Shown here: piece by piece, positions 2,176 through 63,049 of the stretch
Layout of the letters: each line of letters begins with the position of its first letter
Numbering within the stretch: the first letter of the stretch is position 1
Assembly: GCA_958295675.1 (NCBI GenBank)
Contig: OY282360.1
Coordinates: forward strand, 530,026-594,025
Source: Minisyncoccota bacterium
GTDB lineage: Bacteria; Patescibacteriota; Minisyncoccia; Phycocordibacterales; JABAAK01
Reading direction: 5' to 3'
DNA length: 64,000 nucleotides
The notes under the pieces: model-generated
What the model was told of the DNA's origin: nothing
The model's database searches: none
What the model saw: only the letters and a program-made list of their open reading frames with translations
Program-made: the position numbers and the translations under genes

Positions 2176-3588
2176 TTACTTGTCTTCAGACCGTTTGCCG
2201 TAATCAGCCGCATCGCTCATGTCGCCGAGACGGGATGTGGAAATGCCGAAAGTGCTGGCAAAGCGACGAATCCACGCATGAACGATGGTGCGGACTTCAG
2301 GATGTACCCTCACACCGGAACGCAGCCGCAGAAGATACAGCCACTTATCCAGAGTGCCGTTCATCTCGAAAAACACCTCAACACCCATCGGCAGGAAGTA
2401 CAGAATGTCCTGTGACCTGGAAAAGGTATTCCAATACACTCTGGACATGGTTAACCCACCAGCGGTTGAGTGCACTACTTCATTCCGCTTATCTAGTGAT
2501 GGTATTTGATCAAAATACCACCCTGCAAAGCGAACATGTTCCGATTCCGCCGGAAGCGAAAACGATTTCGCATACGGTCGATGCCGCCACAAGTCACGCA
2601 ATGACCGCATTGACACTGAACCAGTACAGCGAATCGTCCCGAATCGTCCGAGAAAATCGTCAGACAGACGGGAATCCAATGCAAGCCGCAACAGGTTATC
2701 AATGTAAGGGCTGCATACCCTTTTTGTGTCAAACAATGCGAAGTGCGCTTCAGCAGATTCAGGTACATCAGAACGAACAAGCCGTTCGTCGCGTGCCAAA
2801 AAGGCATGGTTTTTCAGACAATCTCGCAATGATGCACGAGTGTTGAACTCAGCAGGATCCCGTTCCTTTACGGAATTCGGACACACATGGTTGATGACCC
2901 GAAGCAAATGATCACCGATGGCGGTAATCTCACCCTGACCTAGATAGGACTGCATTTCCCACGCATGCTCAATCAGGTTGCGAATATCACAGGTCAACAC
3001 AACACTGGTACGCGCTGCCAAAGGCAAAAACGCACCGGCGATGTCAAATGCTTTCGGTTCCGCATCCTTCGGTTCCATTCCCTGTTTTCGGAACTCCTCC
3101 TTGAGCATATCCAACACACTGCGGTACTGTGAGAACCAGCCCTTGACGGTATCGTGTGCATCCGTATTGTCCCGGAGAGACGGCGGCAGCAGATACCTTG
3201 TCTCGCTGAAGTCAATGTATCGCGTGGATGCCTCCTGTCCCTGAAACCGAGCGAACTCAATAGTCCGCAACGCACCGTACATGGACACATCCTCAACAGC
3301 AAGCGTCAGATGCCCCATCTCGCCGATGGAATCGTGTCCGTAGTTGCGGAAGTATCTGCCGATAATTCTGTCCCGCTGTTTCAGTGTGAGTTCAGCGAAA
3401 CGAACACGAAGCGGCGCAGGATCGCGCGACAGTGTGGCACCGAGTGCGGCGAACATTTCCGGATCGCCGTTGATCAGCACGACAATCCGAAATCCCAATG
3501 GGTGTTCATATTCCCGCAAACGCATGCCATCGCTACCGACAATTTCAGTCGGTTCAACCGGCAATGCCAGTATGTCTGTGTCAGCCAT
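2176..3588 (-). CDS. thyX: tandem-domain ThyX-like protein (flavin-dependent thymidylate synthase fold, duplicated)
   Basis: First half: GHDSIGEMGHLTLAVEDVSMYGALRTIEFARFQGQEASTRYIDF resembles the ThyX GHESVfEH...RHRxxSxxxESQRY block with a degenerate RHR. Second half has RHRPYAKSFS and two HAWE/HAWI (HAQWEIR-like) blocks. At 470 aa it is about twice canonical ThyX. Confidence 0.4.
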   Translation of the reverse strand: MADTDILALPVEPTEIVGSDGMRLREYEHPLGFRIVVLINGDPEMFAALGATLSRDPAPLRVRFAELTLKQRDRIIGRYFRNYGHDSIGEMGHLTLAVEDVSMYGALRTIEFARFQGQEASTRYIDFSETRYLLPPSLRDNTDAHDTVKGWFSQYRSVLDMLKEEFRKQGMEPKDAEPKAFDIAGAFLPLAARTSVVLTCDIRNLIEHAWEMQSYLGQGEITAIGDHLLRVINHVCPNSVKERDPAEFNTRASLRDCLKNHAFLARDERLVRSDVPESAEAHFALFDTKRVCSPYIDNLLRLALDSRLSDDFLGRFGTIRCTGSVSMRSLRDLWRHRPYAKSFSLPAESEHVRFAGWYFDQIPSLDKRNEVVHSTAGGLTMSRVYWNTFSRSQDILYFLPMGVEVFFEMNGTLDKWLYLLRLRSGVRVHPEVRTIVHAWIRRFASTFGISTSRLGDMSDAADYGKRSEDK

Positions 3589-3765
3589 GAAATCTCTCCC
3601 TTTTGTGGATGTTCACCGCCCCGGTACCTCATTCAAGGAACGGACTTGTGGCAAAAGACCAATGCCGTTGGTGCGGCATACTTCCTATAGTATACATCTA
3701 AAAATAGCAAACAATCAAACAGAACAATTTGACAATAAATCGTGTATACTATATACCGAGAACAT

Positions 3766-5919
3766 ATGCAGAACCTCGTTATCGTTGAGTCACCGACTAA
3801 AGTAAAAACAATAGAAAAATATCTCGGTAAAGAATATAAAGTGGTCGCTTCAGTCGGACATATACGGGATTTGCCGAAAAGCGAAAAAGATGCGGTTGAT
3901 ATTGACCGCGGATTCACGCCGAAATATGTGACCAATACGGAAAAAAAGAAAGTGGTACAGGATATCAAAAAAAAGGCGAGAAGCGCGGACCGCGTCATAC
4001 TCGCGACTGATCCGGACCGTGAAGGCGAAGCGATTGCATGGCACATACAACAGGCCGTTGATCTTGAAAACCCGGATAGGGTTGTATTCAATGAAATAAC
4101 CGAAGAAGCGGTTCGTGAAGCGCTGAAACATCCGAGAAAAATAGATCAATCACTCAGAAAATCACAGGAAGCGCGACGAGTGCTGGACCGGTTATTCGGC
4201 TACACGCTCAGCAAACTCATCTGGACCAAGGTGCGGTACGGACTCTCCGCGGGACGCGTGCAATCCCCGGCTCTGCGCATACTCATGGAACGGGAACGGG
4301 AGATACGAAAGTTCAAACCGGAAACCTATTGGGAAATACGCGGAACATTTAAGCGGGAAGACGGAAAAGAATACATAGCGGAATGTGAAAAGACATTTGA
4401 CAAAAAAGAAGAGGTTTCTGATATTGTACATCAGGCAAAAAAGAAGAAGTGGAAAGTTAATGATATACAGGAACGGATGCAGAAACGAAATCCGCGCGCG
4501 CCGTTCATCACCTCAACACTGCAGCAGGCGGCAAACAGCGCGTTCGGGTGGTCACCGTCATACACAATGCGAACAGCGCAGCGGCTCTATGAAGCGGGAC
4601 ATATCACCTATATGCGCACCGACTCAACAAACCTATCCGCACACGCCCATGCAATGCTGAAAAAGCACATCACGGAAGAATACAATGCGAATGAATACCG
4701 CAGAACGGATTACAAGACAAAAAGCAAATCGGCACAGGAAGCGCACGAAGCAATTCGTCCCGCATCAATCAGCGGCATACACCGCGGAAAAACAAAACAG
4801 GAAAGCGCGCTCTACACCCTGATACATCAGCGAACGGTCGCGAGTCAAATGAACCCCGCGGAACTGGTACGCACTGTGGTATCTTTTACAGCGGACGGCA
4901 TGCCGCTTTTTCTCATTCGCGGTGTCGTCATCGTGAAAGAAGGGTGGTTCATGGCGGATCCGAACGCGCGCGGTGAAGAAATAACGCTTCCGACATTCAA
5001 CAAAGATGAGAATATGATATGCACTGATATGCAGTCAGCGGAAAAACAGACCGCTCCGCCGTCACGCTACTCAGAAGCCGGATTGGTTAAGGAACTTGAA
5101 GCGCGAGGCATCGGCAGACCATCCACCTATGCTCCGACTATCCAGACACTTGTGGAGAGAAAGTATGTTGAAAAAGAGAACCGATCACTCAAACCGACAA
5201 CACTCGGCGATGTTGTCAGCTCATTCATAGAAAAAAACTTTGAAAACTATATCAGCGATTCCTTCACGGCAAATATGGAACAGAATCTTGATGAAATAGC
5301 GAACGGAAAAAAGGAATACGAGGAAACACTTTCATTATTCTACCGTCCGTTCAGAGAAAGTGTGGAATCAAAACAGGATGTTCCCAAACTGACTTCACTC
5401 GGTGCCGCACCGAAAGAATACCTCTGTCCTGTCTGTGACGGCACTATGGAATACAAACTGTCAAAAACAGGCACTTTCATGAGTTGCAAAAAGTATCCCG
5501 AGTGTCTCGGGGCGCGCACGGATGAAGGAGAAGAAATACAGCCGCCGAAACCGATCGGCAAACCATGCCCGAAATGCGGTGAATCGCTGGTGAAACGAAC
5601 CGGTAGATTCGGTGAATTCATCAGTTGTGAAACATACCCGAAATGCAAGTATGTTGAAGAAGACCCCGAAGAAAAAGCAAGAAAAGATACCGGTGTGCTG
5701 TGTACAATCTGCAAAAAAGGAACCATAATTGAACGACAGGGTAAGTTCGGTCCTTTCTTCGGTTGCTCAGAATACCCGAAATGCAAGAACACAATGCGCG
5801 CGCGACCGACGGGAGAAAAATGTCCAGAATGCGGCGCACTGATGATGGAAGGCACAAAGACCATACCAAATCGCTGCTCTGTAAAGACATGTCCGATGCA
5901 TAACCCGCACAAGGCATAA
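3766..5919 (+). CDS. topA: DNA topoisomerase I
   Basis: TOPRIM N-terminus (MQNLVIVESPTKVKTIEKYLG, DPDREGEAIAWH) and active-site-region motif (TYMRTDS). Four C-terminal Cys4 zinc ribbons (CPVCDG..CKKYPEC etc). Confidence 0.9.
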   Translation: MQNLVIVESPTKVKTIEKYLGKEYKVVASVGHIRDLPKSEKDAVDIDRGFTPKYVTNTEKKKVVQDIKKKARSADRVILATDPDREGEAIAWHIQQAVDLENPDRVVFNEITEEAVREALKHPRKIDQSLRKSQEARRVLDRLFGYTLSKLIWTKVRYGLSAGRVQSPALRILMEREREIRKFKPETYWEIRGTFKREDGKEYIAECEKTFDKKEEVSDIVHQAKKKKWKVNDIQERMQKRNPRAPFITSTLQQAANSAFGWSPSYTMRTAQRLYEAGHITYMRTDSTNLSAHAHAMLKKHITEEYNANEYRRTDYKTKSKSAQEAHEAIRPASISGIHRGKTKQESALYTLIHQRTVASQMNPAELVRTVVSFTADGMPLFLIRGVVIVKEGWFMADPNARGEEITLPTFNKDENMICTDMQSAEKQTAPPSRYSEAGLVKELEARGIGRPSTYAPTIQTLVERKYVEKENRSLKPTTLGDVVSSFIEKNFENYISDSFTANMEQNLDEIANGKKEYEETLSLFYRPFRESVESKQDVPKLTSLGAAPKEYLCPVCDGTMEYKLSKTGTFMSCKKYPECLGARTDEGEEIQPPKPIGKPCPKCGESLVKRTGRFGEFISCETYPKCKYVEEDPEEKARKDTGVLCTICKKGTIIERQGKFGPFFGCSEYPKCKNTMRARPTGEKCPECGALMMEGTKTIPNRCSVKTCPMHNPHKA

Positions 5920-6001
5920 TCATAAAAAATTCTGCCGATGTCCGAAGACAATCAGCAGAATATGGATCGGAACAACGCAATCAATCGTGAGCATGAAGAC
6001 A

Positions 6002-6559
6002 TCAAAGACCGAGCACTAATTTTTGCAAATCAGCGCGGGTTACTTTAACATCCTTATCACCTCTCCACAACGCGGTACACGCTCCGGAAAGAAACGATTC
6101 TGACGATTCCGTCTTTAAGCCATCGACACATTGCTCACGGGAAACAGTTGTGCCGTCACTCAGTTTGATTTTTGCGTCGGCATAATGCACCAACACATCA
6201 GCAAGTCGTCTGTTGTACTCACACCAAATGGGTACATCGTACCTGTATTCCCCTGTTTCCTCATCAAGCATGGGAAAAAGGTAATCCCTGTAGTCAATAC
6301 CTGCATCACGAATTCTGATGCAAATACTGACATCCTGTTCGGGTGAAGAAGGTGCGGGAGAACCTTCATGGCGCGGCAAAGCAGCGGCTTTTGGCTCTTT
6401 CTTTTCCGAATCTGATTGATTGAAAAAGGCAAAACCCTGAGACCGAACTCCGGAAAGTGTACCACTCTCCGCGGCAACGGCACAAACACACGACACCTGC
6501 ACACCGGCACAAACAAAAAAACCGGCAAGCACTTTTTTTAAACCACCTTTCACCATCAC
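6002..6559 (-). CDS. secreted protein, member 1 of a WCxYN/ACTALW C-terminal-domain family
   Basis: N-terminal signal peptide. The C-terminal ~90 aa (IWCEYNRRLA...DGTTVSREQC...ACTALWRGD...LQKLV) are shared with the next two genes. Confidence 0.55.
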   Translation of the reverse strand: MMVKGGLKKVLAGFFVCAGVQVSCVCAVAAESGTLSGVRSQGFAFFNQSDSEKKEPKAAALPRHEGSPAPSSPEQDVSICIRIRDAGIDYRDYLFPMLDEETGEYRYDVPIWCEYNRRLADVLVHYADAKIKLSDGTTVSREQCVDGLKTESSESFLSGACTALWRGDKDVKVTRADLQKLVLGL

Positions 6560-6708
6560 ACAACCTCCTTCAGTGAGCAGGACGAAAGAACACTCTATTT
6601 ATATTTTATCACAACAAGAAGAGTATATATAAAAAAGTAACACCGATGTGAATAAAAAGTAACCGCGACAATATACATGTTTTCACATGACATTGTCGCG
6701 GTAAAATG

Positions 6709-8301
6709 CTACCTCACTCCGGGAACGAGCATACTAAGATCTCGCACCCGAATTGTGGCCATCTCTTGATCACCTTTCCATAGCGCAGTACACGCCCTAG
6801 AAAGATCAGAAGGACCGTCATGTGCCGCAAGATTCCTGATACATTCATCTTGCGATACAGACGTGCCGTCATCAAGAGAAATTTCCTCAAATGAAGAAGG
6901 ACCGGATTCAGCGAGTTTCAGCGCAAGTCGAGCATTGTATCGGCACCAGATAACAGGCTGGTATCTCCAGCTCCGTGTTCTGGTGTTGAATACTCTCTCA
7001 CGCAGATACGCCCTGTGGTTCAGGGTACGCAACTTCTCACACGCGTTCCTCGAGTTTTGATCATCAGAATGCTGAGCAAGGTTTTCCGCCGGAACCACTT
7101 GATCCGATTCACCCTCTTCAACAGGATCCTCAATCACCTCGGGTCCATCGGCTTCAGCATCATCTTCAAAGAACGGGAAGTCGTCAACCAAAACCGGTTT
7201 CGGTGTTTCGTCAACAAAAGTCACCTCCACACGAATTGGTTTGTGATGTTCCGGAAGAACATCAAGATCGGTGCTCGCAGCGTCCTCAGCAGAACCATCA
7301 AATCCGGGGAGATGAAGAACCGGATCTTCAACGACCACTTCTCCGGAGAGATTCGGCTCTTCAACAACAACCGCTTCTCCGGAGAGATTCGGCTCTTCAA
7401 CAACAACCGCTTCTCCGGAGAGATTTGGCTCTGCAACAACAACCGCTTCTCCGGTGAGATGAGGAGTCAGATCTTCAACAACCACTTCCAGCACTCTCAC
7501 TCTGTCGCCATCAGCAGTTTCAACCTCAAACTCTCTCAAAGGAAGACCACTTTCTGCAGGAGTCGAGGGGGTGAGAATTTTCCCGGCGCCAGCAGCTTTC
7601 TCCTCAATCTCTTTCAGAGAAACACCGAATCCTCCTTCTGCTTCCTCAACTACTGCACCTAGTTGCGCAGGATCCGGAGAGTCGTCGCTTACTCCTTCCG
7701 ATCCCTCAATTTCTGTACGTGGTGGCACAGAAGTCAAGGTCTCATCAGTCGCTGTTGCCCCCTCATCCGTTTCGCTTGATAGCGCAGGAGCCGGAGAGTC
7801 GTCGCTTACTCCTTCCGATTCCTCAATTTCCGTACTTGGTTGCACAGAAGTCAAGGTCTCGTCAGTCGCTATTGCCTCCTCAAACATCTCGCTTGGTAGC
7901 GTGGTTTCCGGAAACAGAACAGCGGGATCTTCCCCAGCTACTGCATCTGGTTGCGTAACAACCAGAGAGTCGTCAGATGCTTCCACTTCCTCAACTTCCG
8001 CGCTTGGTTGCACAGGAGCCGGAGTGTCGTCAGATGCTTCCACTTCCTCAACTTCCGCGCTTGGTTGCACAGGAGCCGGAGTCTCGTCAGTCGCTGTTGC
8101 CTCCTCATCCATTTCGCTTGATAGCGCAGGAGCCGGAGAGTTGTCAAATTGAGTTTCAGTCCTTCCTTCAAAGGAAAACAGAAACCGAGTCGTTTGCTCC
8201 ACAAACACCTCGAACGGTATATCGCCGTATTTGTGCTCAAATACGGCACCTCCACCGAACAGGGTCAATGCAGAAACCACACACAAAAAACCTTTGAACA
8301 T
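6709..8301 (-). CDS. secreted acidic repeat protein, member 2 of the same C-terminal-domain family
   Basis: Signal peptide. Long D/E/S/T/P/A low-complexity body built from DNA tandem repeats. C-terminus VIWCRYNARLA...DGTSVSQDEC...ACTALWKGD...LSMLV. Confidence 0.6.
   Translation of the reverse strand: MFKGFLCVVSALTLFGGGAVFEHKYGDIPFEVFVEQTTRFLFSFEGRTETQFDNSPAPALSSEMDEEATATDETPAPVQPSAEVEEVEASDDTPAPVQPSAEVEEVEASDDSLVVTQPDAVAGEDPAVLFPETTLPSEMFEEAIATDETLTSVQPSTEIEESEGVSDDSPAPALSSETDEGATATDETLTSVPPRTEIEGSEGVSDDSPDPAQLGAVVEEAEGGFGVSLKEIEEKAAGAGKILTPSTPAESGLPLREFEVETADGDRVRVLEVVVEDLTPHLTGEAVVVAEPNLSGEAVVVEEPNLSGEAVVVEEPNLSGEVVVEDPVLHLPGFDGSAEDAASTDLDVLPEHHKPIRVEVTFVDETPKPVLVDDFPFFEDDAEADGPEVIEDPVEEGESDQVVPAENLAQHSDDQNSRNACEKLRTLNHRAYLRERVFNTRTRSWRYQPVIWCRYNARLALKLAESGPSSFEEISLDDGTSVSQDECIRNLAAHDGPSDLSRACTALWKGDQEMATIRVRDLSMLVPGVR
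7339..7460. repeat. intragenic 36-bp tandem repeat (about 3.3 copies)
   Basis: Unit ttctccggagagattcggctcttcaacaacaaccgc reiterated head-to-tail. Further ~60-100 bp near-perfect reiterations lie at 7660-8130. Confidence 0.8.
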
Positions 8302-8493
8302 GGTCTTTTCCTTCAGTTGTTGATGGTAGACAGCACAAAGACTGCCACTCTAGTTTCTATTATATAAAATATAAACATATTGTCAACTTTTATAGAATAA
8401 GGTTCAAAAAAAATACAACTAAATAACCCCTTCCCTATATAAAAAGAAAAAGACCACAACAACAAGATAAACTGTCGTTGTGGCCTTTGAAAA

Positions 8494-9126
8494 TCACCGC
8501 CGATCAAAAACGAGACGGTACAAGTCAGATGACATCACGGTGGGCTTTCCACCACGAAGCAACACTGAGCAAGCGCGGGAATAAAGGTTCTTCCCGTCCG
8601 TCTGCATCGGCAGATGGGCGACACAGTCCTCAACCGTGACTGGCTCGCCGTCAACATCAATGCTGTCCGCGGCAATGTCTGCGTTTCCAAGTTCAGCAGC
8701 CAATGTGCGGTTGTACGCACACCATGTTGCTGCCGAGTAAACACGAAACCCGCCATCCCCGAGGTTAGTGTCATAGCGGGTACTCGGTTGTTGATCTGCA
8801 TACTGATCGCATGGATTTTCATCCACTTCGGAATCATCAGATGCGGACTGATCAGCAACCATCTCAGGCATGGGGGGCATGGCTACAGGATGAGGCACAA
8901 CATACGGACCCGAACGCGACACTATTGCCCCATTTCGTTCCCGGTACTGCTCACCAAAGAGCGATGAGACGCTTCTGTCACCATAGTGATGCATGAAAAA
9001 TGCACCGAGAACCGGCAACGAAAGCATGAACAACGCCAAAACGACACCGCGCAATACACCGCCACTCCGTTTTGCATCACCACCAGTTTTTGCCCCGTCT
9101 TCGGGAGCAGTATCCTGTGTGTCCAT
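8494..9126 (-). CDS. membrane-anchored/secreted protein, member 3 of the same C-terminal-domain family
   Basis: N-terminal TM anchor. C-terminus TWCAYNRTLA...DGEPVTVEDC...ACSVLLRGG...LYRLV. Confidence 0.55.
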   Translation of the reverse strand: MDTQDTAPEDGAKTGGDAKRSGGVLRGVVLALFMLSLPVLGAFFMHHYGDRSVSSLFGEQYRERNGAIVSRSGPYVVPHPVAMPPMPEMVADQSASDDSEVDENPCDQYADQQPSTRYDTNLGDGGFRVYSAATWCAYNRTLAAELGNADIAADSIDVDGEPVTVEDCVAHLPMQTDGKNLYSRACSVLLRGGKPTVMSSDLYRLVFDRR

Positions 9127-9352
9127 TTTTCCTCCTTACTGGAAGTTGAAAAGAAATATAAAGAGACCCGTATAAATGGTCCCTAGTCCTGAATATATAA
9201 TAGTATGAAAACAATATATTGTCAATATCCCCTTATATAATACTCATATACCGCGATTATCACATAGATAACCACATAGCAGCAAAACCGGGGGATATAC
9301 ACATTCTCTTTCCATACAAAATCGGAAAATACCTTCTATTTTATTACAAAAA

Positions 9353-10903
9353 ATGGATATAAGATTTGTGTTGTATAGTACCAATATGAAAGCAGCAACA
9401 GAACAAGTAATAACATCACAGGACTATATCACAGCACAGGATATTATTGATTCAATACCGTACCAAATACCCATCAATGACAGACAAACGATAGAAAAAG
9501 CATGCGCATTTGTAAAAAAAAAGCATGAAAGACAGAAACGATATTCCGGTCTTCCCTATTACACACACGCCTTTGAAGTCGGAAAACTCATTGCGGAAGC
9601 AAATATGCCCATTAATATCATCATCGCCGGAATCCTCCACGACACGATAGAGGATACTGATACGACCGCTGCAGATATAGAAAAAGAATTTAACAAAGAA
9701 ACAGCATTCCTCGTGGAGAGCGTGAGTCATCTCGGTGAAGTACGCTATCAAGGATTGGATATACGGGTCAAATCACTCCAAAAACTATTTGTGGCAACAT
9801 CAAAAGATTTACGCGTCATCATCATAAAACTGATGGATCGGCTGCACAACATGCGAACACTTGATGCCGTTCCGGCAGAAAAACAAAAACGCATTGCCAA
9901 AGAAACACAATTGGTATATGTACCGCTTGCCGCTCGCCTTGGCATGGGTACTTTAAAAACAGAATTGGAAGAACTGGCATTCAGGCATATTGATCGAAAA
10001 ACATACAACATGCTGAAAGAAAAAATTAACACGGTAATCGGGTCAATATCAATGAAAGATATGGAAAGAAAAATGAGTGATGTTCTTTTGTCCGAAGGAG
10101 TTACTAATGTCAGCATAACATCAAGGATAAAAAACGCATACAGCACATACATGAAAATGAAGTATAAAAAATGCTCTTTTGAACAAATCCAGGATATCAT
10201 CGCGCTCCGCGTCATCGTTGATGACATACCGACCGCATACCATGTGTTAGGCATCATTCACGCGCATTGGCGCCCGATACCGGGAACATTCAAGGATTAT
10301 ATATCTCTGCCGAAACCGAACGGTTATCGCACGCTTCACACCAGAATACTCATTGACCAACACATTCTTGAAATACACATCCTGACTTACAGTATGTATC
10401 AGCACGCCCAATTCGGCATCGCCGCGCATTTTCATTATAAGGAAAAAAGAATAGGAATCGCCGGTATTGAACTGCAATGGTTTGACAAATTACTTGCTCA
10501 CAAAAAAACAGAACCGACAAAAAAACAACTCCCATGGCTGGAGCGAACTGCCGAACTTCACCAAAAAGAGAACGATAATGAGTCATCATTTGTTGAAAAT
10601 ATGCAGGTGGATTTCCTGCAGGAACGCATGTTTATATTCACACCAAAAGGTGAAACGGTTGACTTACCGCGAAAGGCGACTGCTCTTGATTTCGCGTTTG
10701 CTATTCACAGCGACATAGGAACACATGCGGAAGGTGCCTTTATCAACGGCAAATACACCTCACTAAGGCAGGAATTAAAAAACGGTGATATTGTCAGGAT
10801 AAAAGCAGCAAAAATACCGAAGGCGACAAAAAAATGGCTGGAATGGGTAAAAACAGCGGAAGCGCGTTCAGAAATCCGCCAGTTTATAAAGAAAAATTCT
10901 TAA
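9353..10903 (+). CDS. rel: bifunctional (p)ppGpp synthetase/hydrolase, short RelA/SpoT homologue (HD + synthetase + TGS, no ACT)
   Basis: HD-domain motifs (HDTIEDT, DRLHNMRTL), synthetase motifs (ALRVIV, GYRTLHTRI, EIHILT...AAHFHYKE) and a TGS domain (IFTPKGETVDLPRKATALDFAFAIHSDIG). The true start may be M at 9386. Confidence 0.8.
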   Translation: MDIRFVLYSTNMKAATEQVITSQDYITAQDIIDSIPYQIPINDRQTIEKACAFVKKKHERQKRYSGLPYYTHAFEVGKLIAEANMPINIIIAGILHDTIEDTDTTAADIEKEFNKETAFLVESVSHLGEVRYQGLDIRVKSLQKLFVATSKDLRVIIIKLMDRLHNMRTLDAVPAEKQKRIAKETQLVYVPLAARLGMGTLKTELEELAFRHIDRKTYNMLKEKINTVIGSISMKDMERKMSDVLLSEGVTNVSITSRIKNAYSTYMKMKYKKCSFEQIQDIIALRVIVDDIPTAYHVLGIIHAHWRPIPGTFKDYISLPKPNGYRTLHTRILIDQHILEIHILTYSMYQHAQFGIAAHFHYKEKRIGIAGIELQWFDKLLAHKKTEPTKKQLPWLERTAELHQKENDNESSFVENMQVDFLQERMFIFTPKGETVDLPRKATALDFAFAIHSDIGTHAEGAFINGKYTSLRQELKNGDIVRIKAAKIPKATKKWLEWVKTAEARSEIRQFIKKNS

Positions 10904-14674: not shown

Positions 14675-14759
14675 AATATTAGTCATGCGCGTCTGCCCGT
14701 GCCGTCAATCTCTGATTGACGCTGACGGATAGTCGCCACGGAGTGGCGGAATGATGGGG

Positions 14760-14826
14760 TGCCGGAGGCGGGAGTTGAACCCGCACACCCGAAGGTACAC
14801 GATTTTGAGTCGTGCGCGTCTGCCCG
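14760..14826 (-). pseudogene. partial tRNA-Leu(CAA) copy (3' two-thirds, from D-loop to discriminator)
   Basis: Identical to the 14887..14954 part of the intact gene. The 5' acceptor/D-stem is replaced by the 29-nt element cgtgccgtcaatctctgattgacgctgac. Confidence 0.7.
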
Positions 14827-14886
14827 TGCCGTCAATCTCTGATTGACGCTGACGGATAGTCGCCACGGAGTGGCGGAATGATGGGG

Positions 14887-14968
14887 TGCCGGAGGCGGGA
14901 GTTGAACCCGCACACCCGAAGGTACACGATTTTGAGTCGTGCGCGTCTGCCAATTCCGCCACTCCGGC
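14887..14968 (-). tRNA. tRNA-Leu (anticodon CAA)
   Basis: Reverse complement folds as GCCGGAG acceptor with anticodon stem CACGA/TCGTG and loop CTCAAAA. Long variable arm. T-arm GCGGG-TTCAACT-CCCGC. Discriminator A. Confidence 0.8.
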
Positions 14969-15006
14969 ATATAAAACAGTATAACAAACAGATATAGCAC
15001 TTCCTT

Positions 15007-17304
15007 CTACCGTACTTCAAACCCGTTTTTTTGCAGCACAGCATTCAATGCTTCCATACATACATTCACTGTGGAATCATCAAGAGTTCTGTCATCCGAT
15101 TGGAACACAAGACGAAACGCATACGATACTTTTCCGTCTTTTTCAAAGGTATCAAACATATTCACACGGCGCAGGTATTCACCGCCGTGTTCCCGGAGCA
15201 GATGTTCTGTCTGTTCTACCGTCGTGCCGTCCGGAACAAATACAGCAATATCCCGCAACACAAACGGAAACGGAGAAAACGGCGTATAGCGCACACGACC
15301 GATAACCGGAGGAAAATCATACGCATCCGGTTCAAGCGGCACTTCATCAAGCGGCACTTCCCAAACACCACCATCAAAACCGCCGGGAATAGGAAGTGCC
15401 TTCTTTATACTCTTTTCTATCTCCTTGATATCAGGCCCCGATCTGCCGAGTGTCGCGGTAATGCCGAGTGCAAGATGTATACTCTCACCACGCTCTGTAA
15501 ATACAGAACCAATCTCCATAATACGAATATCAGACACCCCGAGTAATTCTCCGACATAGGCATTTCTTTCAAGGGCTTCCTCAATCCCTTTTCTCAGGTC
15601 AGTACGCAGACACCCTTTATCCGCAGCGACAGGATGCGAAACACATACATCACCTTTCTCAAAGAATGAATGGGTAATCACTTCAGAAAAACCAAAAACA
15701 CGCAACGACTTCACAAGGGCAAGATGCTTCGCGAATATCGGCTCAACAGATTGCTCGCTTTGTGATGGTATAGCGGTCGGAGCGGCGCTCGGCACTGTGT
15801 CATAACCGAGTATTCTGCCGACTTCTTCAGTTAAATCAAACGCATTCCGTATATCAGGTCGTTCAACCGGCACAGTCACAACAAAACGCCTTTCATTATC
15901 CCAAATACTCGCCGCATATAGCATGCGTTTCCGGTCAAATTTCTTTGTCACCACGGCATTCGCACCGCTGCTTCCTTCCGCTTCAACAATGGTATCAGCA
16001 TCCAAAAGAACAGCGACATGATTAAATCCTGTCTTGACCGATCCGGGAGAGACAGGGTACCCCGATTCATACACCGATTCCGTGTGCAACGGAAGATTCC
16101 TGTCATCCGACTCCATGAAAATAAGATCGCCCGGACGGGGGTCAGTAACCTCAGCAGCGGAAAGAAATTGATTAACGGATATGCGCGGAATAGATTTTCC
16201 CGCACGCGACGCGCACCAGCAAACGAGCGATGAGCAATCAAAAGCATCGGGGGCATCTTTAGTAACAGACGCTCCCCACTTATACGGCTTGCCTGTCTGC
16301 GCTTTCACTGTTTCAATGAACAATGCGCGCGGGTCTTCATATGTGTGCGGCAATTGCAGTCGCTCAAGCGCGGCGCGCACATCCTCTTCAGTATGCGATG
16401 ATCCGAGTATAGCATTCACTTCGGCGACCGAGATGCCGGTCATCCGGCGGTGTCCGATCGGCACCCGCTTGCTGTCAAAAGAATCAACGATAGTACCGTG
16501 TTCACCGAAAACTTCTGCCGCACGATGAGCACTGTAACCGACAAGTTCCGGGGGAATATTCTGCGAAAATCGCAAGGAAGCATCCGAAACAAGATTGAGT
16601 CGTCGCATCGTGCGGCGGATAGTCGCGCCACGAAAGGTTGCTGATTCAATATAAATACTCTTCGTGTCCGGACTGACTCCGGTATCTTCCCCGCCCTTCA
16701 CACCGGCAAGCGCAACAACTCGGTCGGCATCAGTGATAACTATATCATCAGAAGAAAGCGTAACAGTGTCCCCGCCAAGCAGCGTGAGTGTTTCACCGTC
16801 ACGCGCTTGCCGCACACCGAACTCACCGGATACCTTTTCCGCGTCAAATGCGTGTATTGGCTGACCGATATCAAAAAGCACATAATTAGAGAGATCAACA
16901 ATCGGATTAATGCTCCGCTGCCCTATCGCCTCAAGCCGCAACCGTATCTCTTCGGGTGTTTCCTGCAATGACACATCATCAACTTTCATAATGGTATACC
17001 GATCACAGTACTCTGTCTGTATACACGCCGCCTCCCGCGCAAACTGAAACGGTTCCGTAAAATAGTGACGACGCATAGTCAGCGAAAAAACAGCAGCGAT
17101 TTCCTTCGCGACACCGTAATGTGCAAGACAATCAACCGACCGATTCGGCAGGATATCCAGTTCATACACGGTATCATCGCCGTTCCGCACTACATCCTCA
17201 ACCTCAAACGCATGCCGCATCAGACCGTCCGAAACTATATCCGGTGACGGCAACGGTTCGTTAAAAAATGATTGTAACCATGCGTGACTGTATATTCCCT
17301 TCAT
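15007..17304 (-). CDS. pheT: phenylalanine--tRNA ligase beta subunit with an inserted NlpC/P60 peptidase-like domain
   Basis: B3/B4, B5 and C-terminal FDX-ACB-like regions are recognisable. The start overlaps the pheS stop (ATGA). Residues ~352-503 of the ORF-track protein (nt ~15885-16338) carry PYKWGASVTKDAPDAFDCSSLV ... GDLIFMESDD ... FNHVAVLLDADTIVEAEGS. Confidence 0.8.
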   Translation of the reverse strand: MKGIYSHAWLQSFFNEPLPSPDIVSDGLMRHAFEVEDVVRNGDDTVYELDILPNRSVDCLAHYGVAKEIAAVFSLTMRRHYFTEPFQFAREAACIQTEYCDRYTIMKVDDVSLQETPEEIRLRLEAIGQRSINPIVDLSNYVLFDIGQPIHAFDAEKVSGEFGVRQARDGETLTLLGGDTVTLSSDDIVITDADRVVALAGVKGGEDTGVSPDTKSIYIESATFRGATIRRTMRRLNLVSDASLRFSQNIPPELVGYSAHRAAEVFGEHGTIVDSFDSKRVPIGHRRMTGISVAEVNAILGSSHTEEDVRAALERLQLPHTYEDPRALFIETVKAQTGKPYKWGASVTKDAPDAFDCSSLVCWCASRAGKSIPRISVNQFLSAAEVTDPRPGDLIFMESDDRNLPLHTESVYESGYPVSPGSVKTGFNHVAVLLDADTIVEAEGSSGANAVVTKKFDRKRMLYAASIWDNERRFVVTVPVERPDIRNAFDLTEEVGRILGYDTVPSAAPTAIPSQSEQSVEPIFAKHLALVKSLRVFGFSEVITHSFFEKGDVCVSHPVAADKGCLRTDLRKGIEEALERNAYVGELLGVSDIRIMEIGSVFTERGESIHLALGITATLGRSGPDIKEIEKSIKKALPIPGGFDGGVWEVPLDEVPLEPDAYDFPPVIGRVRYTPFSPFPFVLRDIAVFVPDGTTVEQTEHLLREHGGEYLRRVNMFDTFEKDGKVSYAFRLVFQSDDRTLDDSTVNVCMEALNAVLQKNGFEVR

Positions 17305-17305
17305 A

Positions 17306-18010
17306 CTAAAATTGATTAATAAAACGCAAATCAGCCCTGTAGAGCATACGCACATCATCAAATCGATAGCGCAGCATGGCAATACGATCAATTCCTATCC
17401 CAAAAGCGAATCCGCGGTATATCCGGGAATTAATACCGACACGAGAAAAAATATGCTGATGCACCATGCCGCATCCGAGTATCTCTATCCAATCCCGGTC
17501 GCCGACCCGCTTCATATCAACTTCCAAACTCGGTTCCGTAAACGGAAAGAAGCTCGGACGATAACGCATCTCAATATCATTTCCGAATATGCGACGCAGC
17601 ACGGTATCAAGAACACCCTTCATGTGCGCAAGCGAAGTGTCTTCGGTCACACACAACCCTTCAAGTTGATGAAACTGTGCACCATGTGTCGCATCGGTTG
17701 CCTCATTTCTGAACACCTTACCGGGTACAACAATACGGATTGGCGGCTGATGCGTTTCCATATACCGTACCTGCATCGGCGAAGTATGTGTACGAAGCAC
17801 TGCACCGGGACAACCTTTAATCCAAAAAGTGTCCTGCATTTCCCTGGCAGGATGGTCAGCTGAAACATTCAGCGCATCAAAGTTATAATATTCATCCTCC
17901 AATTCAGGACCGACTGCGACCGTATACCCAAGACCGTCAAAAATACTGACCAATTCACTGGTAATCGCAGTAATCGGATGAACACCCTTCTGTTTTCCGG
18001 TCGTTTCCAT
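17306..18010 (-). CDS. pheS: phenylalanine--tRNA ligase alpha subunit (short form)
   Basis: Class II aaRS motifs (FRNEATDATHGAQFHQLEG, GFAFGIGIDRIAMLRY). Confidence 0.85.
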   Translation of the reverse strand: METTGKQKGVHPITAITSELVSIFDGLGYTVAVGPELEDEYYNFDALNVSADHPAREMQDTFWIKGCPGAVLRTHTSPMQVRYMETHQPPIRIVVPGKVFRNEATDATHGAQFHQLEGLCVTEDTSLAHMKGVLDTVLRRIFGNDIEMRYRPSFFPFTEPSLEVDMKRVGDRDWIEILGCGMVHQHIFSRVGINSRIYRGFAFGIGIDRIAMLRYRFDDVRMLYRADLRFINQF

Positions 18011-25909: not shown

Positions 25910-27118
25910 ATGGCAGATATATGCAAAGAACTGCGGAAACAGTTGAAAGAACTGAATACATTGCGAGAATCGTGTGGCTCTTTGCTTCTCAGAGAAGGAA
26001 TGGAATCCGATGCGGCAAAGAAAACGATTGAGGAGTTTGATACACTGGCGGAACACCTGCGTGATGCGGTTGCATTGTACAAACAACCGTTCGGTGAGTA
26101 TCTTGATATACTTGAAAAAAAGATAGACGACAAGAAACCACTTGACAGACGGGAATGCGGTCTGTTGTACGGTGTGGATCGGTATCCAGGAAATGTCAGT
26201 GATGCTGAAAAAGTAAAACGATACACTCTAATAAAGAAAAGAACCGGTGCAGAGAAAAAAGAAGATCTCAAACTTGCGCTTGAGGAACTCACCCCGCCGA
26301 GAGAGATTGATGGTGATTTGAATCTTGTTGATATCACCTCCGCTGAAGGACTCATCCTGCCGGAGAAAATTGGTGGTGGTCTGAATCTCAGAGGTCTCAC
26401 CTCCGCGAAAGGACTCACGCTACCTGAAGAGATTGGTGGTTTTCTGTATCTCGGCAGTCTCACATCCATAGATACTGAATTCACTATGCCGAAGAAGATT
26501 GATGGTGATCTGTTTCTTAGCAGACTCGCGTCCATAAATACTAAGCTTACTATGCCGGAGGAGGTTGGTGGTGATCTAGATCTCAATCTTCTTGAATCCA
26601 TAGATATTGAATTCACCATGCCGGAGAAAGTCGATGGTGATCTGTGGCTCGACAGTCTCACATCCATAAAGAATAAGCTCACTATGCCGAAGGAGGTTGA
26701 TGGTGGTATGGTTCTCATTAGTCTCAAATCCATAGATACTGAGATTATTATGCCGGGGAAGGTTGGCGATCATCTGGATCTTGAAAGTCTCACATCCATA
26801 GATACTGAGATTACTATGCCGAAGGAGGTTGGTGGTAATCTGGATCTTCGCAGTCTCACATCCATAGATACTGAGATCACTATGCCGGAGGAGGTTGGTG
26901 TTGATCTGGATCTTAAAGGACTCACATCCATAAATACTGATCTCACTATGCCGAAGGAGATTGGCGGTAATCTGTATCTCAACAGTCTCACATCCACGCA
27001 AGGTATCACCAACTGGCCTATAAAAATTAGACGCGAGATATATATAAACCCAGCATTGCCAGACAACGAAAGAGAAGAACTGGAGAAACGGTATCCGGGT
27101 CAGGTTCGATACGAGTGA
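25910..27118 (+). CDS. 23-residue-repeat (BspA-type LRR-like) protein, paralogue A
   Basis: N-terminal MADICKELRKQLKELNTLRESC helix. About 14 repeats of LTSIxTExTMPxEVGGDLDLxxL. C-terminal ITNWPIKI...EELEKRYPGQVRYE. Confidence 0.65.
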   Translation: MADICKELRKQLKELNTLRESCGSLLLREGMESDAAKKTIEEFDTLAEHLRDAVALYKQPFGEYLDILEKKIDDKKPLDRRECGLLYGVDRYPGNVSDAEKVKRYTLIKKRTGAEKKEDLKLALEELTPPREIDGDLNLVDITSAEGLILPEKIGGGLNLRGLTSAKGLTLPEEIGGFLYLGSLTSIDTEFTMPKKIDGDLFLSRLASINTKLTMPEEVGGDLDLNLLESIDIEFTMPEKVDGDLWLDSLTSIKNKLTMPKEVDGGMVLISLKSIDTEIIMPGKVGDHLDLESLTSIDTEITMPKEVGGNLDLRSLTSIDTEITMPEEVGVDLDLKGLTSINTDLTMPKEIGGNLYLNSLTSTQGITNWPIKIRREIYINPALPDNEREELEKRYPGQVRYE

Positions 27119-32393: not shown

Positions 32394-33458
32394 TCACAAC
32401 CTGGTATCATCATAACGAATTTTATTTGGATACCGTTTCTCCAGTGCTGCTTTCTCATTGCCTGGCAGCGCTTGGTTCACTTGTATAGTTCCTATAATTT
32501 TGACAGGCCAGTTAGTGATACCTTGCGTGCTAGTTAGACTATTGAGATACAGGTCACCACCAATCTCCTCCGGCAATGTAACTTCATCTGCAGAGGTAAG
32601 ACCAGCAAGAGATAAATTACCACCAACCTCCTTTGGCAGGATGGATCTTTTCACGGAGGCAATCTTGTAGAGATACAGATGACCACCGATCTTTTCTGGG
32701 AAGGTAATAAGATTATCTACGGAAGTTAATTTGGTGAGATATAAAGAACCACCAATCGTTTTCGGCAAAGCAAGTTTCTTTGTGGAAACAAGATGACGGA
32801 GATTCAGATCACCACCGACTTCCTCCGGCATGGTGAATTCAATATCTATGGATTCAAGAAGATTAAGATCTATACTGCCACCAACCTTCTTCGGCAGGGT
32901 AAACCCTTTTACAGAGATGAGATTCCCAAGAGACAAACTGCCTTCAATCTCCTCTGGCAAAACAATTTTATCGTCGTCAATGGAAATGAAATCATCAAGT
33001 TTTAAATCACCGCAATGGTAGCGCATTTTTCCCAAAAGCGCATCTAATTTAGTCAAAGAAATACGATCAATGGTGGTGTCAAGCGCACATGCGATATCCT
33101 GTTTCTTTTGTGTATCACTTCTCCTTTCTTTCAAATATATTTGTCTTTGTTGTTCCCTAATATCATAACCTCTCGCTCTCGGATACTGATCAATATCATA
33201 CAACAGACGGTATTCCCGTTTCGTGCAAGGTACACCGTGTGCTATCTTCCGTTCTATACGATCCAGATGTGCACTGAACGGTTGACTATAAAATGCAACA
33301 TCATCACGCAATTCTTCCGCCAATGTATCAAACTCCCTTATTGTTTTCTTTGTTGTTTCGGATTCTGCTCCTTCTCTGACAAGCGCGGAGACACACGATT
33401 CCCGCAATCCGTCCAGTTCTTTCAACTGTTCCCGCAATTCTTTACATATATCTGCCAT
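32394..33458 (-). CDS. 23-residue-repeat (BspA-type LRR-like) protein, paralogue B
   Basis: Start at MADICKELREQLKEL. Same repeat architecture and C-terminal ITNWPVKI...EKRYPNKIRY tail as paralogue A. Confidence 0.6.
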   Translation of the reverse strand: MADICKELREQLKELDGLRESCVSALVREGAESETTKKTIREFDTLAEELRDDVAFYSQPFSAHLDRIERKIAHGVPCTKREYRLLYDIDQYPRARGYDIREQQRQIYLKERRSDTQKKQDIACALDTTIDRISLTKLDALLGKMRYHCGDLKLDDFISIDDDKIVLPEEIEGSLSLGNLISVKGFTLPKKVGGSIDLNLLESIDIEFTMPEEVGGDLNLRHLVSTKKLALPKTIGGSLYLTKLTSVDNLITFPEKIGGHLYLYKIASVKRSILPKEVGGNLSLAGLTSADEVTLPEEIGGDLYLNSLTSTQGITNWPVKIIGTIQVNQALPGNEKAALEKRYPNKIRYDDTRL

Positions 33459-33480
33459 ACCAAGAGTAAGATAGCATGGT

Positions 33481-34491
33481 TCACAGATATGCGTCTTCAA
33501 CCTGACTCGGATAGCGTTTCTCCAATGCTGCTTTCTCACTGTCTGACAATCTAAAGTTCACACGCACAGTTCCTCCAATATTACCGGGCCATTTAGTGAT
33601 ACCTTGCGTGCTGGTGAGATTACTGAGATTCAAATCACCACCAACCTCCTCCGGCATAGTGAGCTTATTCTTTATGGATGTGAGTCTGCCAAGAATCAGA
33701 TTACCGCCAACCTTCTTCGGCATGGTGAGTTTCTTCTTTATGAATGCGAGATTACTGAGATTCAGATCATCACCGACTTCCTCCGGCATGATGAGTTCCT
33801 TCTTTATGAATGTGAGTCTGCCAAGAATCAGATTACCGCCAACCTTCTTCGGCATGGTGAGTTTCTTCTTTATGAATGCGAGATTACTGAGATTCAGATC
33901 ATCACCGACTTCCTCCGGCATGATGAGTTCCTTCTTTATGGATGTGAAATTTCTGAGATCCAAACCACCACCAATATTCTCCGGCAGAGTGATTCTTTTC
34001 GCAGAGGTTAAATTATTGAAATTGAGATTATGGAAAACCAGATTGCCGTAATGGTACCGTATATCACCAGAAAATGCTTCTTTTTTGGTCAGAGAAATAC
34101 GATCAAGGGTAGTGCCAAGCACAAATGCGAGATCTCGTTTCTTTTCTTCATCGCTTCTCCATTTTTCTACCATATCTTTTCGTCTTTTTCTTTCCTCTTC
34201 ATTGTTACCTTTCAGGTGCTGATCTATACCGTACAACACCCAGTATTCCCATTTCGTCAGGTTCTTCTTGTCCTCCATCTTCCGCTCTATATCGTCCAGA
34301 CGCTCATCAAACGGTTGTCTGTACAGTACCACCACATCATGCAATTCTTCCGCCAATGTATCAAACTCCCTTATTGTTTTCTTTGTTGTTTCGGATTCTG
34401 CTCCTTCTCTGACAAGGACGGAGACACACGATTCTCGCAGGATGTCTAATTTATTCAACTGTTCCCGCAATTCTTTACATATATCCACCAT
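33481..34491 (-). CDS. 23-residue-repeat (BspA-type LRR-like) protein, paralogue C
   Basis: MVDICKELREQLNKL start. Near-identical internal 69-bp DNA repeats. C-terminal ITKWPGNI...EKRYPSQV. Confidence 0.6.
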   Translation of the reverse strand: MVDICKELREQLNKLDILRESCVSVLVREGAESETTKKTIREFDTLAEELHDVVVLYRQPFDERLDDIERKMEDKKNLTKWEYWVLYGIDQHLKGNNEEERKRRKDMVEKWRSDEEKKRDLAFVLGTTLDRISLTKKEAFSGDIRYHYGNLVFHNLNFNNLTSAKRITLPENIGGGLDLRNFTSIKKELIMPEEVGDDLNLSNLAFIKKKLTMPKKVGGNLILGRLTFIKKELIMPEEVGDDLNLSNLAFIKKKLTMPKKVGGNLILGRLTSIKNKLTMPEEVGGDLNLSNLTSTQGITKWPGNIGGTVRVNFRLSDSEKAALEKRYPSQVEDAYL

Positions 34492-35611: not shown

Positions 35612-37090
35612 TGCGGAGGCAATTTCACTTGAATTATTCCACGAACAGCTTCCGCTACCCGTGCCTTGTTACGCCTTAGCCCTTGTTATTGAATTTACCT
35701 TAGACCCGTATAAAACGGGGCATCGGGTACCCTCAACTTCCTTGACTTGGCGGGCGGTGAGTACAAGACTCGAGAACGTATTCACCGCAGCGTGCTGATC
35801 TGCGATTACTAGCGATTTCAACTTCATGGGGTCGAATTGCAGACCCCAATCCGGACTGAGACTGTTTTTATTAGGATTAGCTCCGGCTTGCGCCTTGGCA
35901 TCCCGTTGTAACAGCCATTGTATCATGCGTGCAGCCCGAGGCGTCAAGGGACATGCGGACCTGGCGTCATCCTCTCCTTCCTCCCTCGTGAGAGGGCAGT
36001 CTCGCCTGACATCATATAACAGACGACGAGGGTTGCGTTCGTTACCCCACTTAAGGGAACAGTTCAAACCACGAACTGACGACGGCCATGCATCACCTGC
36101 CTACCCGCCCGAAGGAGATACCCCTTTCAGGGTATCGTCGTGTAGGTTTCTAGCCTCGGTAAGGTTTGTCGCTTAGCATCGAATTAAGCCGCGTGATCCA
36201 CCGCTTGTGCGAGTCCCCGTCTATTCCTTTGAGTTTTAAGCTTGCGCTCGTACTACCCAGGCGGCTTGCTTAACGCGTTAGCTTCGCCTCTCAAGGGTCA
36301 ATGCCTCAAAAAGCCAGCAAGCATCGTTTAGGGCGTGGACTACTGGGGTATCTAATCCCATTCGCTACCCACGCTTTCGTCTCTGAGTGTCAGGAGCAGA
36401 CCAGTGTGCTGCCTTCGCTTTTGGTGTTCCCCACAGTATCAACGGATTTCACCCCTACTCTGTGAGTTCCACACACCTCTTCTGCCCTCTAGTGCTGCCG
36501 TTTCGTATGCGGTTTTCCGGTTGAGCCGGAAGATTTAACACACGACTAACAGCACCACCTACAGACGCTTTACGCCCAGTGATTCCGGGTAACGCTCGGG
36601 GCTTCTGTATTACCGCTCCTGCTGGCACAGAATTAGGAGCCCCTTATTCATACGGTACTGTCAATAAACTTCCTCCCGTATAAAAGGTGTTTACGCGCCG
36701 AAACGCTTCATCCACCACGCGGCGTCGCTCCGTCAGGCTTTCGCCCATTGCGGAATATTCTCGACTGCGGCCTCCCGTAGGAGTATGGCCCGTGTCTCAG
36801 TGCCATCGGTGGGGGTCAGGCTCTCACCTCCCCTACGCGTCATTGCCTTGGTACGCCGTTACCGTACCAACAAGCTGATGCGAAGCAGGCCCCTCCCTAA
36901 GCGAAAAATCTTTACTCCGTAGAGACTATCAGGAATTAGCACACCTTTCGATGCGTTATGCCTGACTTAGGGGTAGGTTCCTACCTGTTACTACCTCGTT
37001 TGCCACTGGGTCCGAAGACCCCGTTCGACTTGCATGCCCTATCCACGCCGCCAGCGTTCACCCTGAGCTAGGATCAAACTCTAAATAAAG
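35612..37090 (-). rRNA. rrs: 16S ribosomal RNA (complete, no linked 23S)
   Basis: Reverse complement begins AGAGTTTGATCCTAGCTCAG at ~37082. It contains ACGGGAGGCAGCAG, GTGCCAGCAGCCGCGGTAATAC, ATTAGATACCC, ACGAGCTGACGAC and AAGGCGTAACAAGG. It ends with the CCTCC anti-SD near 35615. Confidence 0.9.
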
Positions 37091-62512: not shown

Positions 62513-62707
62513 CAAAATAGTGGTGTGATTATATTTTTACTATTGCAATACGCATGGGCAATCCGCTACAGAAACGATTATTACATTTCTCACGAAAAGA
62601 ATCGACTAATTAGTACTCCTCTGCTAAACGCATCTCTGCGCGTACACATAGAGCCTATCAACCTGATCATCTCTCAGGGGTCTCAAATGATACCTAATCT
62701 CAAGGTG

Positions 62708-62740
<33 letters not shown>

Positions 62741-62799
62741 CTGCCCAACATAGCTACCCAGCTGTGCCGCTGGCGCGACAACTGGTACACCAGAGGTTA

Positions 62800-62831
<32 letters not shown>

Positions 62832-62870
62832 TCCTTTCAAGTATCAACGACTGCGGAAGATAGAGAACCA

Positions 62871-62914
<44 letters not shown>

Positions 62915-62928
62915 TTGGAGAACAGCCA

Positions 62929-62982
<54 letters not shown>

Positions 62983-63017
62983 GAACTCCGTCGTCGATAT
63001 GAACTCTTAGACGGAAC

Positions 63018-63049
<32 letters not shown>

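Follow-up and report, generated by a model that had tools for sequence, protein, structure and literature searches.

What would a bacterium with a small genome do with three neighboring genes whose products all end in the same cysteine-containing module, and what might that module be? The question is raised by positions 6002 to 9126 of a 64,000-nucleotide stretch of contig OY282360.1 (assembly GCA_958295675.1, a Minisyncoccota bacterium), called the window here. An initial annotation had noted three adjacent minus-strand genes in it, here named A, B, and C, with an alignable C-terminal module. The answer we favor, tentatively and as slightly short of an even chance, is that they encode tandem paralogous surface proteins with a putative binding head that is probably stabilized by disulfides. 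Their products would be Sec-exported to the surface of a small-genome, Paceibacteria-like member of the candidate phyla radiation (CPR, or Patescibacteria). Each runs from an N-terminal signal or anchor through a disordered spacer (42, 385, and 47 aa) to a head of about 105 aa with four cysteines.

Three tandem paralogues with a common C-terminal head domain

The region holds exactly three open reading frames (ORFs) on the minus strand and is flanked by topA (3742-5919, plus strand) and a relA/spoT-type gene (9353-10903, plus strand). Its features are as follows.

Gene A, 6002-6559, minus strand: ORF of 185 aa from a GTG at 6559, with signal peptide, 42-aa spacer, and head domain
Hydrophobic core of the A signal peptide, 6464-6535, minus strand: aa 9-32, from a Kyte-Doolittle scan
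Four-Cys head domain of A, 6005-6334, minus strand: aa 76-185, from alignments A1 and A2 and AlphaFold2
Gene B, 6709-8301, minus strand: ORF of 530 aa, P0003 in the protein collection
Hydrophobic export or anchor segment of B, 8236-8298, minus strand: aa 2-22
Juxtamembrane motif GAVFEHKYGD of B, 8221-8250, minus strand: aa 18-27, common to C
Acidic low-complexity spacer of B, 7066-8220, minus strand: aa 28-412, pI 4.05, 26% Asp plus Glu
Tandem repeats in the B spacer, minus strand: 7329-7488 (36 nt x 4.4), 7665-7901 (117 nt x 2), and 7965-8138 (57 nt x 3)
Four-Cys head domain of B, 6712-7065, minus strand: aa 413-530, from alignments and profile search
Gene C, 8494-9126, minus strand: ORF of 210 aa, P0004 in the protein collection
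Transmembrane (TM) helix of C, 8983-9066, minus strand: aa 21-48 by hydrophobicity, AlphaFold2 helix 23-48
Motif GAFFMHHYGD at the end of the C helix, 8977-9006, minus strand: aa 41-50
Four-Cys head domain of C, 8497-8835, minus strand: aa 98-210, structured part 105-207

The collection holds the product of gene A as P0001, with 184 aa, which fits an ATG start at 6556. In B, an N-terminal hydrophobic segment is followed by a 385-aa acidic repeat spacer and the head, and in C a 20-residue N-terminal tail precedes the TM helix, a 47-aa disordered spacer, and the head. The description of B as an acidic, mucin-like repeat protein was accurate as to acidity and repeats but not as to mucin likeness in the classical sense, the spacer being rich in Glu, Val, Pro, and Ala instead. 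Antisense plus-strand ORFs in B (e.g., 7015-7662 and 7571-8152) are shadow frames of the repeat region. An artefactual or non-coding origin of the three genes was excluded by conservation of their orthologues, by a ratio of nonsynonymous (dN) to synonymous (dS) divergence, omega, below 1 in the head, and by Shine-Dalgarno, promoter, and terminator signals.

The C-termini of B and C are 33 to 41% identical to that of A over about 110 residues; pairwise identity among all three is 26 to 41%, nowhere below 20%, and the cysteines are conserved. Pairwise BLASTP gave E values of 1e-20 for A/B and 2e-9 for both A/C and B/C. All of the motifs first quoted for the module were present, those common to the three C-termini being W-C-x-Y-N-x-x-L-A, D-G-x-x-V-[ST]-x-x-x-C, A-C-[TS]-x-L, and D-L-x-x-L-V. 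The module aligns as described but is longer than the roughly 90 aa originally assigned to it: it spans about 105 to 115 aa, and about 33 residues ahead of W-C it has a fourth Cys that is also invariant. When the four-Cys core was written as a degenerate DNA pattern, it matched all three genes, with 0 matches expected by chance, and a profile of the three modules detected no further copy in the window.

Alignment A2 brings together ten sequences, namely the three heads and seven from other assemblies, at pairwise identities mostly of 20 to 40%. Its invariant columns, in the numbering of the A module, are C5, W37, C38, Y40, A45, C69, L73, C86, L89, and D102, and N41, L44, S83, T87, L103, and L106 are nearly so. 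As a working definition of the family we used C...W-C-x-Y-[NH]-x-x-[LM]-A...C-x3-L...C-[TS]-x-L...D-[LV]-x-x-[LF]-[VIL] after an N-terminal hydrophobic segment, a combination found in A, B, C, and all seven outside A2 sequences. Judged from this alignment, conservation of the head across independent assemblies is far beyond chance.

The N-terminal regions had been described as unrelated. That is right only in part, since B and C are also alike N-terminally, both having a hydrophobic helix and the juxtamembrane motif GA[VF]F-x-H-x-YGD. B and C are thus paralogous along the whole gene and did not start out as unrelated proteins that later gained a common tail, and we read the array of A, B, and C as tandem paralogues of entire genes.

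A rare family in Paceibacteria-like assemblies

An exhaustive profile search, in which all 1.84 billion representative proteins were read with a profile built from the three modules of this one genome, yielded ten matches at E up to 1e-3: B and C, the near-orthologues P0002, P0005, and P0006, the divergent P0007 to P0010, and a marginal repeat protein, P0011. Independent members had E values of 1e-42 to 3e-4. One further orthologue, P0012, came from a word-indexed protein search that is lossy for this family, having missed B and C though both were query rows; this lossiness and the single-genome profile of the exhaustive search both limit the estimate of rarity. The family is extremely rare, with about 12 proteins in a few Paceibacteria-like CPR assemblies (ENA), and the suggested lineage specificity was borne out, at about ten representatives among the proteins read. 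By its TopA, the window is closest to a Candidatus Paceibacterota metagenome-assembled genome (MAG), OZ244939.1 (641 kb, 78% identical), followed by a Candidatus Kaiserbacteria MAG (75%), which marks the organism as a Paceibacteria-like CPR bacterium.

Patterns taken from the three-module alignment had no match among the GTDB species representatives; they are too specific for P0008, which a GTDB genome carries. The three-module alignment likewise had no match in the JGI metagenome contigs (241 million records), and the six matches there to a degenerate core pattern were all attributed to chance by hidden Markov model (HMM). No relative of the head was found in IMG/VR, nor in phage and plasmid records by tblastn.

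P0011 (434 aa) has a unit, L-x-D-G-[ST]-x-x-[ST]-[RK]-x-[DQ]-C-[LV]-x-x-A, that resembles the second beta-hairpin and following helix of the head, and it matched profile positions 45 to 94 in four stretches with a whole-protein E value of 9.7e-4. The match is local (about 50 aa), P0011 lacks both the W-C-x-Y-N core and the four-Cys pattern, and a TPR_17 match in the protein scored 17.2 bits against a Pfam cut-off of 24.4. From its sequence, the likeness is probably convergent or very remote.

Searches against described families

The initial annotation could not match the module to a described domain, and neither could we. Pfam and NCBIfam gave nothing above noise for full-length A, B, and C (NCBIfam, 0 families at E up to 1), and a permissive Pfam scan of each of the ten aligned members returned sub-threshold matches only. 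In PHROGs and PADLOC, 0 families were matched at E up to 0.1; PDB sequence profiles gave no significant match to the head, and Foldseek no fold match for the head model in PDB or BFVD. The head domain is a new family, undescribed in the searched libraries, and is possibly a new fold.

Several candidates were rejected. Fim1C-like_C (PF21489), the C-terminal domain of a fimbrial tip subunit, was the only Pfam family to match more than one member (2 of the 10, E 0.016 to 0.15); the likeness is limited to a sub-threshold match of about 50 residues, 12.3 bits for B against a 27-bit cut-off, and was taken as noise. The start of B, with its KG|F, hinted at a type IV pilin, but it reads M-F-K-G-F-L-C-V-V without Glu at +5; C also lacks the prepilin motif, and no HMM match to N_methyl (PF07963) was found in either. 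A reads as no lipoprotein, having no canonical lipobox, and a polymorphic toxin would have its variable and conserved ends the other way around, apart from these proteins being anchored.

Predicted fold, topology, and disulfides

AlphaFold2 modeled the A head from the ten-sequence alignment with a predicted local distance difference test score (pLDDT) of 93.3 and a predicted template modeling score of 0.85, four of the five models exceeding a pLDDT of 92. The elements follow in the order helix, short helix, beta-hairpin, long helix starting at W-C, beta-hairpin (D-G-T-x-V-S), and three helices. Each of the four Cys lies in a separate helix of the model, and they are spaced 17 to 33 residues apart. 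A second AlphaFold2 run, on full-length C, placed a TM helix at 23-48 and a disordered spacer at 58-104 (pLDDT below 55), and over residues 105-207 (pLDDT about 77 to 90) it reproduced the element order of the A head. In these models, the head is a compact alpha/beta fold that is confidently predicted and recurs in a second paralogue.

Only C had been thought membrane-anchored, which proved too narrow, for a hydrophobic segment is present N-terminally in A, B, and C, and none occurs elsewhere in any family member. In A, a basic n-region, the hydrophobic core, and an A-V-A|A-E site that reads like one for signal peptidase I make up a classical signal peptide; C has a signal-anchor or TM helix, and B, whose short hydrophobic N-terminus resembles that of C, probably has one too. 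Because the sole hydrophobic segment precedes the head in every member, and because distant members have K/R-rich tails ahead of their TM helix, the predicted orientation is N-in, C-out with an extracytoplasmic head. Four invariant cysteines lying far apart in an extracytoplasmic domain are most simply read as two structural disulfides.

The same four residues could instead bind a metal or an Fe-S cluster or be redox active, and they are absolutely required, beside W, Y, A, L, and D only. We consider such a center very improbable, since CxxC or CxxxC spacing is missing, the cysteines are 17 to 33 residues apart in separate helices, the site is predicted to be extracytoplasmic, and no metal-binding family was matched.

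The topology also bears on the suggestion that the module sorts or anchors its protein. C-terminal sorting signals (LPXTG/sortase, PEP-CTERM, and type IX secretion system [T9SS]) are likewise conserved C-terminal elements on variable secreted proteins, and this arrangement is a classic signature of tags for a sortase or dedicated secretion system. The new head, unlike them, has no defining motif, hydrophobic helix, or basic tail. An LP.[TSA]G expression matched nothing in A, B, or C, the C-termini read ...LQKLVLGL, ...LSMLVPGVR, and ...LYRLVFDRR, and NCBIfam had no match although models for PEP-CTERM and T9SS are presumably present in NCBIfam and Pfam. Moreover, the module forms a folded unit of about 105 aa, predicted to lie distally on proteins whose export or anchoring depends on the N-terminus, and it is not always terminal, P0007 and P0010 having extra sequence C-terminal to it. 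The proposed co-occurrence with a sortase or secretion system was looked for and not found, as no such gene is consistently located near the family loci. A sorting or secretion tag is, in our view, hardly credible. Of the three functions first offered for the module (sorting, anchoring, and binding), binding is the most plausible.

Synteny and rapid evolution of the array

The same gene order, ParB, RelA, C', B', A', TopA, ThyX, and DprA, occurs on a 22-kb contig of another assembly (L002/L003). There, A' is 80% identical to A, P0005 (510 aa) is the orthologue of B at 63%, and P0012 (231 aa, L002) that of C, also at 63%. The spacer repeats of P0005 differ from those of B; a related acidic unit of about 20 aa recurs there in a long series. 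We calculated dN and omega by the Nei-Gojobori method with our own script between these two genomes, the window and L002.

TopA: 97.9% amino acid identity, dN 0.010, omega 0.04
RelA: 93% amino acid identity, dN 0.032, omega 0.10
ParB: 96% amino acid identity, dN 0.021, omega 0.15
Gene A: 80% amino acid identity, dN 0.118, omega 0.42
Gene B: 63% amino acid identity, dN 0.246, omega 0.54
Gene C: 63% amino acid identity, dN 0.265, omega 0.63

Across all compared genes dS was 0.13 to 0.45, and dN in the array was 4 to 25 times that of the flanking housekeeping genes. Within the three genes, omega was about 0.35 in the head and 0.49 to 1.0 in the spacers (for B, 0.35 and 0.57).

In the closest named relative, OZ244939.1, the slot between topA and relA holds no three-gene array; it is occupied by a single unrelated, TM-anchored protein of 495 aa (L009 8162-9649, minus strand) with weak FG-GAP/beta-propeller matches. 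This gap thus seems to be a replaceable site for surface proteins. Since another protein fills the slot in OZ244939.1 and its family member P0008 lies elsewhere, the array is a recent, lineage-specific occupant.

The other family loci differ in their surroundings. P0008 adjoins genes for a PIG-L deacetylase and a GT4 glycosyltransferase, P0009 has a type IV pilin cluster on one side and type IV secretion system (T4SS)-pilin-like genes on the other, the contig of P0010 also has a T4SS-pilin-like gene, and at a distance of 4.5 kb from P0007 is an S8 peptidase with 46% identity to its counterpart in the window. Some details of these loci are recorded for their own sake. The cytoplasmic N-terminal tail of P0008 (gene at L005 10001-10837) contains at residues 75-95 a tandemly duplicated KHWFMSAC-x-RC, giving C-x2-C...C-x2-C, which could be a zinc ribbon and has no Pfam match. 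Upstream of P0008 (L005 5833-7335 and 50-589, both minus strand) are five or six small genes of 83, 83, 83, 83, 72, and again 83 and 72 aa without Pfam matches, which look like a tandem array of secreted or membrane proteins. On the P0007 and P0010 contigs (L004 1593-4884 and L008 1864-7162), gene pairs are duplicated at 99 to 100% identity (e.g., L004 2140-3099/3895-4884); they reflect either tandem duplication in the very recent past or faulty assembly, the contigs being long-read assemblies at a low coverage of 4-5x.

A strong GGAGG-type Shine-Dalgarno site lies upstream of each of the three array genes, that of A being GAAGGAGG, and these sites too are conserved in L002. The other expression signals are listed below.

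Promoter-like site for C, 9197-9225, minus strand: TTGACA-17-TATTAT, 11/12, conserved in L002
Promoter-like site for B, 8359-8386, minus strand: TTGACA-16-TATAAT, 12/12, sigma-70-like, conserved in L002
Possible extended -10 element for A, 6603-6611, minus strand: TGATAAAAT, from reading the sequence, conserved in L002
Terminator-like hairpin directly 3' of C, 8449-8488, minus strand: 17-bp stem and T-run, -23.3 kcal/mol, conserved in L002
Terminator-like hairpin and T-run directly 3' of B, 6662-6702, minus strand: -26.8 kcal/mol, conserved in L002
Hairpin and T-run 3' of A, 5923-5961, minus strand: in the convergent gap with topA

The extended -10 element of A is the weakest of the three promoter calls, and the A-topA intergenic region is 96% identical in L002. 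By these signals, A, B, and C look like three monocistronic units.

That arrangement matters for the idea that the three heads bind one another, so that a possibly released A and a long-stalked B would be held on the membrane-anchored C. The three paralogues are kept together in the same order in two genomes, the A signal peptide looks cleavable, and C has a true TM helix, all of which would suit such an assembly. We nevertheless give it little credence, because the distant members are single, an HMM having detected no further copy on their contigs, and A, B, and C appear to be transcribed separately.

The main rival is that the head tethers the envelope, binding the cell's own wall or S-layer and so bridging membrane and wall. 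PG_binding_1 (PF01471) is likewise a small C-terminal module on secreted proteins of this organism, being the last domain of two large ones in the window (an S8 subtilase at 37336-40977 and an FG-GAP protein at 56836-59367); a C-terminal wall-binding module is thus an established design here, and the genes beside P0008, for the deacetylase and glycosyltransferase, also fit. The head, however, is unrelated to PG_binding_1. Alignment A2 compared with this genome's own PG_binding_1 by hhalign gave a probability of 0.2%, no Pfam match was found at E up to 10, and the genome's PG_binding_1 modules have no Cys, whereas the head has four invariant Cys and a predicted alpha/beta structure that includes two beta-hairpins. 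An N-terminal anchor is already present, and binders of self polymers are usually widespread and slow-evolving, whereas the head is confined to a few assemblies and evolves fast. We consider a tether unlikely.

Other features of the window

The remaining observations concern other genes. Between about 36000 and 52000 the G+C content is 0.52 to 0.62, against 0.42 to 0.49 elsewhere, and the block encodes very large, probable surface proteins. It includes the S8 subtilase (37336-40977), which has Big_13 beside its C-terminal PG_binding_1, an M16 peptidase (40990-42297), and three giants that Pfam matches barely or not at all, at 42460-45024, 45567-48011 (weak PKD), and 48152-52222 (1356 aa). The protein at 56836-59367 (minus strand, 843 aa) has four FG-GAP_2 repeats ahead of its C-terminal PG_binding_1 and is 27 to 28% identical to paralogous proteins of 423 and 425 aa near P0008 in OZ244939.1. 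Three ORFs without Pfam matches, at 25910-27118 (plus strand), 32394-33539 (minus strand), and 33481-34491 (minus strand), are each about 35% identical to one unannotated 286-aa protein of OZ244939.1 (L005 16528-17388); since all three match this same protein, they probably form a second lineage-specific paralogous family in the window.

Phenylalanyl-tRNA synthetase beta (15007-17391, minus strand, 794 aa) carries an NlpC/P60 peptidase-like insert at aa 367-428 (E 2e-10) between B3_4 and B5, and its L002 orthologue (3246-5543) has the same architecture. In the ThyX ORF (2176-3588, minus strand, 470 aa) the Thy1 domain covers aa 68-238 only; the L002 orthologue is of nearly equal length (466 aa), so the long unannotated C-terminal extension is conserved. 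Two tandem tRNA-Leu(CAA) genes (14758-14843 and 14884-14969, minus strand) lie 40 nt apart by ARAGORN, of which Rfam reported only the second at gathering score. The 23S rRNA gene (62589-64000, minus strand) contains a group I intron at 63571-63791, at 50 bits equal to the gathering score, and the 16S gene (35627-37089, minus strand) is about 25 kb from 23S/5S, so that the rRNA operon is unlinked.

A candidate recognition module at the cell surface

We suggest that the head would serve as a ligand-recognition (adhesion) module, with the unequal spacers setting different distances from the membrane. The suggestion is drawn from the anchor-spacer-head anatomy, the unequal spacers, the predicted extracytoplasmic site, and fast evolution combined with purifying selection on the head. 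Its target would be a partner outside the cell that evolves along with it, for instance the surface of a host cell, which in a CPR bacterium is plausibly what the head meets.

The new head is put to a use that is familiar in kind, that of stalk-and-head surface proteins. Monoderm bacteria have stalk-and-head adhesins, e.g., serine-rich repeat proteins and MSCRAMM-type proteins, and A, B, and C resemble these in combining an export signal, a long, low-complexity stalk with variable repeats, and a small folded, putative binding region held away from the cell, and also in their rapid divergence and the change of repeat number between close relatives. Their polarity, however, is the reverse of that in the monoderm proteins, as they are anchored N-terminally and have the head at the C-terminus, where the monoderm proteins carry LPXTG for anchoring. 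In addition, their stalk is acidic, with much Glu, Val, Pro, and Ala, and the head bears no likeness to adhesin domains in Pfam or PDB.

In making the two proposed disulfides, the cell would use oxidative folding machinery of the MdbA/VKOR type that is common in CPR bacteria; MdbA-like oxidoreductases are reportedly overrepresented in these bacteria and in many cases lie next to VKOR (PMC6744442). Four points weigh against the head being a disulfide-stabilized recognition module. No MdbA, Dsb, or VKOR gene was seen among window ORFs of at least 150 aa (64 kb of a 724.5-kb contig). The head has no known ligand, partner, or host. A conserved-neighbor analysis found no gene common to all family loci, leaving no functional handle. 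Raised dN with omega below 1, here from two genomes, could also be expected from plain relaxed constraint.

A stronger form of the proposal, which we regard as unlikely, is that the head is at once a new fold and a host-recognition determinant of episymbiotic Paceibacteria, the paralogues forming one apparatus or targeting different layers of the host surface under evolution resembling an arms race.

The distribution of the family is very narrow, and CPR genomes as a rule carry membrane proteins that are specific to their lineage and have no known function; the finding is therefore useful but not surprising. CPR bacteria are thought to live attached to other cells, and their contact molecules beyond type IV pili are almost entirely unknown. 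The four-Cys head offers a concrete candidate for a molecule of this kind, and a tractable one, and for structural biology it is possibly a new fold.

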